Positions 62,062-64,000 of a DNA stretch of 64,000 nucleotides are shown piece by piece. This stretch comes from Polyangium mundeleinium (lineage in GTDB: Bacteria > Myxococcota_A > Polyangia > Polyangiales > Polyangiaceae). The position numbers and the translations under genes were made by a program. The notes below the pieces were generated by a model that did not search any database, had not been told where the DNA came from, and saw only the letters and a list, made by a program, of their open reading frames with translations. How positions within the stretch are numbered: the stretch's first letter is position 1; each line of letters begins with the position of its first letter. The stretch is taken from contig NZ_JAQNDO010000001.1 of assembly GCF_028369105.1 (NCBI RefSeq), positions 1,715,711-1,779,710 on the forward strand. The letters are read 5' to 3'.

Positions 62062-64000
62062 ATGAGCACAAAAGAAGCCGTCGTCTCCAAGCAGAGCCGG
62101 GTCGTGCGCTCGAATGGCACGCACAAGACTTCGAACGGCGTCGATGGACATCTTCATGGCAGAAGCACGGCCAAGAATGGAGCGAGGAGCCTCGGCAGGA
62201 CGACGGCCCGAAGCCGCAGCGCCGCTTCCGCCATCGCGGAATGGGAGCGGCTCTCCGACGACAGCCGCGCCGAGGTCGAGCACCTCCAGGAAGTGCTGAA
62301 GGCCGTCAAGCAAGGCGATTTCACGGTCCGCTTCGAATACCAGAAAGACGGGATTCTGAGCCGCACGGGCGAGCTCCTGAACGACATCATCGGCCTGAAC
62401 GAGCACATGACGAGCGAGCTCGTCCGTGTCGGCAAGGTCGTCGGTCAGGAAGGAAAGATGCACGAGCGCGCCTCCGTTGGTCCGGCGAAGGGCTCGTGGG
62501 CGAGCTGCATGGCGTCCGTCAATCAGCTCATTTCCGACCTCGTGGCCCCGACGAACGAGGTCGCGCGCGTCATCACCGCCGTCGCCCGCGGCGACCTCTC
62601 GCAGAAGATGGTCCTCGAAATCGACGGTCGCCCGGTGCGCGGTGAATTCCTCCGCATCGGCACCACCGTCAACTCGATGGTCGATCAGTTGAACTCGTTT
62701 GCCGCCGAGGTCACGCGCGTCGCGAAGGAAGTCGGCAATGAAGGCAAGCTCGGCGGGCAAGCGGACGTCAAAGGTGTCTCCGGCACGTGGAAGGACCTGA
62801 CGGACAACGTCAATGGCCTCGCGGCAAACCTGACCGCCCAGGTGCGCAACATCGCGAAGGTGACGACCGCCGTCGCCAAGGGTGACCTTTCGCAAAAGAT
62901 CACGGTCGACGCGCGCGGCGAGATCCTGGAGCTGAAGAACACGATCAACGTCATGGTCGATCAGCTCTCGTCGTTCGCCGCGGAAGTGACGCGCGTCGCG
63001 AAGGAAGTAGGCACCGAGGGCAAGCTCGGCGGGCAGGCGGACGTCAAGGGCGTCTCCGGCACGTGGAAGGACCTGACGGACAACGTCAACGGCCTCGCGG
63101 CGAATTTGACGGCCCAGGTCCGCAGCATCGCGAAGGTGACGACCGCGGTCGCCAATGGGGACCTCTCGCAGAAGATCACGGTCGACGCCCGCGGCGAGAT
63201 TTACGAGCTCAAGAACACCATCAATACGATGGTCGACACGCTTCGCTCGTTCGCCGCCGAGGTGACGCGCGTCGCGAAGGAGGTCGGCAACGAGGGCAAG
63301 CTCGGCGGGCAAGCCGAGGTGCAGGGCGTCTCGGGCACGTGGAAGGACCTGACGGACAACGTCAATGGTCTCGCGGCCAATTTGACGGCCCAGGTGCGTA
63401 ACATCGCGAAGGTGACGACCGCGGTCGCCAAGGGTGATCTCTCACAGAAGATCACGGTCGACGCGCGTGGCGAGATCCTGGAGCTGAAGAACACGATCAA
63501 CGTCATGGTCGACCAGCTCTCGTCGTTCGCCGCGGAAGTGACGCGTGTCGCGAAGGAAGTCGGCAACGAGGGCAAGCTCGGCGGTCAGGCCGAGGTGAAA
63601 GGCGTCTCGGGCACGTGGAAGGACCTGACGGACAACGTCAATGGCCTCGCCGCGAATCTGACGGTCCAGCTCCGCGACGTGTCCAAGGTCGCGACGGCCA
63701 TTGCGAACGGCGACTTGACGCAGAAGATCACCGTCGACGTCAAGGGCGAGATTCTCCAGATCAAGGACGTCATCAACAAGATGGTCGACCAGCTGAACTC
63801 CTTCGCCGCGGAGGTGACGCGCGTCGCGAAGGAGGTCGGCACCGAGGGCAAGCTCGGCGGTCAGGCCAATGTGAAGGGCGTCTCGGGCACGTGGAAGGAT
63901 CTGACGGACAACGTCAATGTCCTCGCGGCGAATCTCACCACGCAGGTCCGTAACATCGCGAATGTCACGACGGCCGTCGCCAAGGGCGACCTCTCGCAAA
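62062..64000 (+). CDS. Cytoplasmic poly-HAMP signalling protein, N-terminal 646 aa; the gene runs off the right edge. The output domain is not visible.
   Basis: The gene is absent from the ORF track because there is no stop in the window. Hand translation from the ATG at 62062 gives [11 protein letters not shown]..., followed by at least five near-identical 92-aa units ([92 protein letters not shown]). Each unit is a HAMP pair, of the type seen in Nik1/Os-1 and bacterial poly-HAMP sensors. Confidence 0.8.
62700..64000 (+). repeat. 276-bp tandem DNA repeats, at least 4.7 copies and more than 90% identical, encoding the HAMP-pair units.
   Basis: gtcgcgaaggaagtcggcaa(c/t)ga(g/a)ggcaagctcggcgg...gtcaatggcctcgcggc... 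recurs at about 62701, 62977, 63253, 63529 and 63805. The mirrored minus-strand ORFs in the track ([17 protein letters not shown]...) are artefacts of the repeat. Confidence 0.75.

Follow-up and report, generated by a model that had tools for sequence, protein, structure and literature searches.

The closest described relatives of the gene treated here are the hybrid histidine kinases AskA (MXAN_0712) and AskB (MXAN_6735) of Myxococcus xanthus, whose genetics have been reported together with those of AskC and the askB-askC gene pair (PMC7643160). The kinase-type poly-HAMP family to which such proteins belong has been described structurally (PMC13446029; Protein Sci 2026). Its members are soluble and begin with a leading canonical HAMP domain of class D1, after which pairs of a non-canonical (C) and a canonical (D2) HAMP are repeated; HAMP3 is marked by a proline kink and by an insertion in its linker that forms a beta-hairpin, and GAF, DHp, catalytic and receiver domains lie downstream. 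The same study places the fungal group III kinases in this class, and its structures 9trk and 9trj are the 6-HAMP and 4-HAMP constructs of AskA, respectively. Here we describe a gene found at the end of a 64,000-nucleotide (nt) stretch of the genome of Polyangium mundeleinium (assembly GCF_028369105.1, contig NZ_JAQNDO010000001.1, positions 1,715,711 to 1,779,710), the whole of which is referred to below as the window. Positions 62062-64000 very probably represent the start of a soluble, dimeric, myxobacterial poly-HAMP hybrid histidine kinase of the AskA/AskB type (bacterial class III-like).

The poly-HAMP gene at the end of the window

The reading frame beginning with the ATG at position 62062 stays open over 646 codons to base 64000, while the frame one base later (62063) is riddled with stops. 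Its GC content at third codon positions (GC3) is 0.87, which matches that of the other genes of the window (~69% GC). Pfam searches with the open reading frame gave matches to HAMP (2.3e-56) and HAMP_2 (7.7e-52), and in a comparison with the PDB residues 30-349 matched 9trk (E 8e-117), with 9trj also matched (E 1e-66); both entries are deposited under the name 'histidine kinase, Gcn4p'. Identity to the AskA construct 9trk amounts to ~69% across the first six HAMPs. No transmembrane segment was found in the window part of the protein or in its full-length orthologs, the maximum Kyte-Doolittle mean over 19 residues being 1.05 and 1.33–1.38, respectively. The preliminary description of this DNA, made from the letters and their translations, had seen in it a cytoplasmic poly-HAMP protein of the Nik1-like (group III hybrid histidine kinase) kind, built of 92-residue HAMP pairs, lacking a transmembrane segment and with its output domain beyond the window. 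These elements are borne out by the Pfam matches, the 276-nt repeat period, the hydropathy values and the orthologs presented below.

The same description was less accurate with regard to what precedes the repeats, which it took to be a short unbiased N-terminal region. The first 72 amino acids (aa) form a basic tail rich in Ser, Ala and Arg, and residues ~73–211 already make up three HAMP domains, which could be aligned to HAMP1-3 of AskA. The third of these has a proline in its input helix, where the motif LVAPTNE aligns with LVQPTTE of AskA (within DLVQPTTE), and an insertion of 11 residues in its linker, which aligns with EVDGRPLRGEF of AskA. Each of the 276-nt units that follow encodes 92 aa comprising one non-canonical and one canonical HAMP. 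An 11-residue motif containing Trp is present in every unit, as is a junction motif led by G(V/I). The classes C, D1 and D2 were assigned by homology to AskA and not by the cluster map of the authors of PMC13446029. A hidden Markov model (HMM) of the unit gave six module matches within the window. Of the at least five consecutive units counted earlier, four are complete and near-identical; the fifth is present over only 202 nt, and the further module upstream of them is divergent. The coordinates of these parts, and of the genes located upstream, are given in Table 1.

Two other sets of matches were considered and set aside. Sub-threshold Pfam matches to SpoIIID (24.5 bits, cutoff 27) and to the RpiR-type HTH_6 (21.6 bits, cutoff 28.3) occur at aa 418-451 and 570-596. 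Matches of this kind were taken for DNA-binding motifs in the article on AskA and AskB (PMC7643160). In the protein described here they recur with the repeat and overlap the HAMP helices, and we reject them as coiled-coil noise. An Aer2-like chemoreceptor was likewise rejected, as the NCBIfam Aer2 model scored 163 bits against a cutoff of 1200 and no PAS or MCP domain was present in the window or in the orthologs.

Table 1. Features of the terminal part of the window, with the predicted kinase gene, the parts of its protein and the divergently transcribed genes upstream.
Feature	Position	Strand	Remarks
Predicted 5' part of soluble poly-HAMP hybrid histidine kinase gene	62062..64000	+	646 codons, ~35%, cut by window end
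N-terminal tail, aa 1-72, Ser/Ala/Arg-rich, basic, probably disordered	62062..62277	+	composition S12 A9 R9 T6
First HAMP, aa ~73-116, D1 canonical type	62278..62409	+	aligned to AskA HAMP1; approximate boundaries
Divergent first di-HAMP module, aa 117-211 (95 aa)	62410..62694	+	unit HMM match from aa 117; AskA alignment
Di-HAMP unit 1, 92 aa	62695..62970	+	
Di-HAMP unit 2, 92 aa	62971..63246	+	
Di-HAMP unit 3, 92 aa	63247..63522	+	nearest unit 1, 90.9% DNA identity
Di-HAMP unit 4, 92 aa	63523..63798	+	most divergent in window, 78-84% DNA identity to others
Di-HAMP unit 5, truncated by window end	63799..64000	+	202 nt
Winged-helix (MarR-like) protein, 133 aa, TTG start	61443..61844	-	Pfam MarR_2 6.7e-07, 29.8 bits, cutoff 27
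DUF5985 small membrane protein, 85 aa	61193..61450	-	Pfam DUF5985 7.5e-25; start overlaps stop of winged-helix gene
Second DUF5985 small membrane protein, 93 aa	60915..61196	-	Pfam DUF5985 4e-18

Orthologs and output domains

To describe the part of the gene that lies past the window, four close relatives were compared. Three of these carry complete genes: Polyangium jinanense (L001; 93.0% DNA identity over the gene part, 1845 aa), Polyangium sp. y55x31 (L002; 91.9% over the gene part, 1843 aa) and P. sorediatum (L082; 92.6% over 8.85 kb, 1846 aa). The fourth is a soil metagenome contig of 3.4 kb (L081; 95.8% DNA identity), the sole contig recovered when metagenomes were scanned with the 40 nt at the start of the gene, and it breaks inside unit 6. 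Alignment with the window showed the locus to be collinear at 85–93% DNA identity. At the protein level, the window part is 98% identical to the proteins of P. jinanense and Polyangium sp. y55x31 and, from residue 55 on, identical to that of P. sorediatum. The N-terminal tail is the only part that varies between the Polyangium species, with all differences to P. sorediatum in the first 646 aa falling within aa 14-54.

All three complete orthologs encode a leading HAMP and 12 di-HAMP modules, giving 25 HAMPs, and in these three genes Pfam identified the output as GAF_2 (9.3e-16), HisKA (2.5e-19), HATPase_c (1.2e-29) and one Response_reg domain (1.9e-27). A second hybrid kinase gene (REC-GAF-HisKA-HATPase-REC, 706–717 aa) overlaps the stop codon of the ortholog or is situated just downstream of it, and a receiver-containing gene lies directly downstream in most of 80 related loci. 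Polyangium sp. y55x31 also holds a second poly-HAMP kinase, a paralog of ~2157 aa with 12 modules (L010, 9755-16228).

Comparison with described HAMP-array proteins

The features of the kinase-type poly-HAMP family can be recognized one by one in this gene. Within the window are a soluble protein, an array of 92-aa di-HAMP modules behind a D1 HAMP, the proline kink and insertion of HAMP3, and the junction motif; the GAF-kinase-receiver output is present in the three orthologs (92–93% DNA identity). AskA and AskB share this organization, being soluble proteins whose N-terminus is extended by a basic stretch, with a D1 HAMP ahead of the 92-aa C-D2 repeats, the kink and linker insertion of HAMP3, conserved Trp and Gly residues at the junctions, and the GAF-HisKA-HATPase-REC output seen in the Polyangium orthologs. 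The second hybrid kinase gene directly downstream also recalls the position of askC after askB (PMC7643160). The protein thus belongs to a published, structurally characterized and very widespread kinase family, and the finding is real but ordinary.

From the literature, the fungal group III hybrid histidine kinases (Nik1/Os-1/TcsC/Bos1) are similar in being soluble and in carrying 92-aa HAMP pairs before a HisKA-HATPase-REC output (PMC13446029; PMC7643160). They differ in that they are eukaryotic, have shorter arrays of about five or six HAMP pairs (PMC7643160) and feed the HOG pathway. Aer2 shares with the Polyangium protein its cytoplasmic location and its tightly joined chain of canonical and non-canonical HAMPs, and there is a weak match to PDB entry 3vol (E 1.7e-06). 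However, in Aer2 a PAS-haem domain interrupts a set of five dissimilar HAMPs and the output is an MCP domain, and the protein is regarded as a multi-HAMP rather than a poly-HAMP protein (PMC13446029). The chemoreceptor-type poly-HAMP arrays (HAMP groups A and B) also consist of long series of near-identical di-HAMP modules with equal inter-HAMP linker lengths, but these are of independent origin, have an MCP output and carry an interface Phe (PMC13446029), whereas the Polyangium units all have Trp and the orthologs a kinase output.

Proposed mechanism and signal input

The mechanism of the Polyangium kinase is most likely that suggested by the published structures of AskA and the HAMP gearbox model (PMC13446029). 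On this analogy, the 25 HAMPs would stack as one continuous dimeric four-helix coiled-coil rod in which canonical and non-canonical HAMPs rotate oppositely, each HAMP reversing the axial rotation of the helices and each di-HAMP module restoring its sense. A conformational state imposed at the rod or along its length would then be passed to the GAF domain and on to the kinase core, and the kinase would supply a phosphorelay that runs via its own receiver and the neighboring hybrid kinase. The rod, the autophosphorylation and the phosphorelay are in this case predicted from 9trj and 9trk. As candidate entry points for the signal we consider the basic N-terminal tail, the GAF domain and the rod itself, the tail being suggested by analogy with FrzCD and with the reported association of AskB with DNA (PMC13446029).

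A number of points weigh against this assignment and the mechanism drawn from it. The window ends before the output domains, and the architecture past base 64000 is taken from orthologs of 92–96% DNA identity. The Polyangium orthologs have 25 HAMPs, compared to 21 in AskA and 31 in AskB, and a single receiver, compared to at least three in AskA (a 'Rec3' is named in PMC7643160). AskA or AskB may be the ortholog, if either is. Furthermore, the rotation relay rests on crystal and AlphaFold conformations of a homolog and not on functional data, and the bacterial members of the family all lack a known input signal.

With regard to the input, one alternative is that the array is itself the sensor and that, with no separate input, the coiled-coil rod answers directly to osmolarity, temperature or a small molecule, as has been proposed for the fungal group III kinases and their sensitivity to fludioxonil and ambruticin. 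Domain-library scans of the window protein gave no recognizable sensor domain ahead of the array, and such arrays are described as typically being without an upstream input domain, with the HAMPs of the kinase type predicted to be strained and dynamic (PMC13446029). HAMP deletions in NIK1 also lower the effectiveness of ambruticin (PMC7643160). In M. xanthus, however, ambruticin bound to AskC and not to AskA or AskB (PMC7643160); the GAF domain between array and kinase could be the ligand site, and the basic tail could be the input, as for FrzCD (PMC13446029). Direct sensing by the rod is an alternative which we regard as rather unlikely.

Age and evolution of the HAMP array

The repeats were analyzed by Tandem Repeats Finder, which reported one array at 62695-63998 with a period of 276, 4.7 copies, 84% matches, no indels and a score of 1757, and by a repeat search, which gave five in-register copies at an exact spacing of 276 nt. 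Although the units had initially been put at more than 90% DNA identity, pairwise values across the four complete units and the truncated fifth range from 77.9 to 90.9%, and units 1 and 3 are the only pair above 90%. Protein identity from unit to unit is 78–98%, whereas third codon positions are only 57–75% identical. According to the method of Nei and Gojobori, the synonymous distance (dS) between the units of the window is 0.41–0.88 with a median of 0.52. Between orthologous units of the Polyangium genomes the same method gave a dS of 0.22–0.45 (median 0.29) and a nonsynonymous distance (dN) of 0–0.012. Orthologous units are 91–95% identical in DNA between these genomes, against 66–92% for paralogous units within a gene, and the best match of each unit in the other Polyangium genomes is the unit at the same position.

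Because dS between units exceeds dS between species and the units are orthologous by position, the array predates the divergence of these Polyangium species and has escaped homogenization since. The near-identity of the units reflects strong purifying selection on an old amplification and not recent duplication. An old array kept under purifying selection (dN ~0, dS 0.4–0.9) constrains the ideas that can be put forward on the evolution of array length.

Cytoplasmic poly-HAMP arrays had at first been considered uncommon in bacteria outside Aer2-like and Nik1-like proteins, a view that does not hold for the family described in PMC13446029. A protein search at E<=1e-20 yielded at least 8000 candidates, and at least 600 loci were found in species-representative genomes across many phyla, as judged by record titles. 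The loci listed include myxobacterial, acidobacterial, cyanobacterial, proteobacterial, verrucomicrobial, planctomycete and gemmatimonad lineages, among others. Complete genes have 7–15 modules, and related genomes share their number, as seen in the Massilia/Duganella group (7 modules in 7 of 7 loci) and in Nostoc (12–13). That module number is conserved within lineages and differs between them suggests that length is a selected property. Among distant relatives, positional correspondence is kept only in the first 1–2 and the last 1–3 units. Their central units are more alike within arrays (0.83–0.92) than between arrays (0.73–0.77), and therefore turnover or concerted evolution appears to act on the arrays of the family over long times.

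A difference in length was also observed at one distant metagenomic locus represented by three assemblies. In two of them, L083 and L084 (both 1857-7388, minus strand), the locus encodes a poly-HAMP kinase of 1843 aa with 12 modules, and in the third, L085 (2409-7388, minus strand), a kinase of 1659 aa with 10 modules. The flanks differ at 1 of 8292 nt, and the genes are identical apart from a 552-nt gap at an exact repeat of 354 nt between units that are 99% identical. Either the locus is genuinely polymorphic by two units or an assembly has collapsed. That array length is truly polymorphic within populations, as the former would imply, is put forward with less confidence than the role proposed below for the genes upstream of the kinase.

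These data bear on the original explanation of the array, according to which recent expansion or ongoing recombination keeps it uniform while the number of units varies between strains and tunes signal gain as a rheostat. At the level of the family there is some room for this, given the long-term turnover suggested by the central units of distant relatives, the span of unit numbers across lineages, the difference of exactly two units between assemblies L083/L084 and L085 (a locus in which units 8 and 10 are 99% identical) and the statement that near-identical modules are consistent with intragenic amplification (PMC13446029). Yet the two-unit difference could represent assembly collapse, and the numbers of the Massilia/Duganella group and of Nostoc are held fixed. 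For the Polyangium gene itself, even the lowest dS between units is above the median between species, every unit pairs with its counterpart at the same position, no identical in-register tract shared by two units is longer than 44 nt, and a comparison of copy number gave 12 modules in 3 of 3 complete orthologs. Homogenization is not an absurd idea for the family but is unsupported for this gene, and as an account of the array it is very unlikely. The other possibility, which had been named as a potential refutation, is that the repeats are an artefact of assembly, mis-joined or collapsed, or that the frame is not a real gene. Many relatives in the databases are indeed 'partial' proteins on contigs that break in the array, and the soil contig does so as well. 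Against this, exact repeats in the part of the gene inside the window do not exceed 44 nt, and the order of the units and their unit-specific substitutions are common to five independent assemblies (the window and its four relatives P. jinanense, Polyangium sp. y55x31, P. sorediatum and L081). Moreover, the soil contig aligns in register at 95.8% compared to at most 88% when shifted. The values of dN/dS near zero and of GC3 also led us to reject a non-coding frame, and there is hardly any likelihood left for an artefact of either kind.

The HTH/DUF5985 cassette and other neighboring genes

Upstream of the kinase, and transcribed divergently from it, is a cassette of three genes (60915-61844, minus strand) of which the first encodes the helix-turn-helix (HTH) protein and the other two the DUF5985 membrane proteins (Table 1). 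In all loci examined, the gene directly preceding the DUF5985 pair encodes a protein of 128–142 aa. In 9 of 80 genome loci, and also in the soil contig, no more than ~1–3 kb separates the pair from a poly-HAMP kinase. The loci bearing the cassette (L001, L002, L010, L019, L040, L048, L056, L062, L075 and L081-L087) include the paralog of Polyangium sp. y55x31 and several alphaproteobacteria. When the search was made from DUF5985 homologs outward, 3 of 6 showed the same five-gene arrangement, and in the other three the cassette stands beside other signaling or ion-transport genes. The association of cassette and kinase is thus recurrent but not obligatory. In the paralogous locus of Polyangium sp. 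y55x31 (L010), the DUF5985 genes are at 18829-19431, and the cassette is downstream of the kinase and not upstream.

The cassette upstream of the Polyangium kinase is not mentioned in PMC13446029 or PMC7643160, and no article in the library searched contained the term DUF5985. It is the only lead of this analysis that may be new. It may conceivably be a functional partner of soluble poly-HAMP kinases, although we hold this to be doubtful; as such it could provide the kinase with a membrane-anchored input or a docking site. If this were true, the cassette would supply the 'missing sensor' of these kinases, whose bacterial members have no known input.

The DNA separating the divergent HTH and kinase genes is well conserved and contains a small palindrome, TGCAT-GATG-ATGCA, at 61952-61965. 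Of five relatives, three have this palindrome intact and two show a change in one arm; it could be an operator. Scans of 61700-62200 for promoter and terminator consensus sequences found nothing.

Further from the kinase, the window contains a gene for a CXXCH-motif protein with a weak match to MtrC/MtrF-like multihaem cytochromes (58350-60164, plus strand) and a gene for a Ser/Thr protein kinase (50359-51987, minus strand). There is also a very long open reading frame of 2251 aa at 35756-42511.

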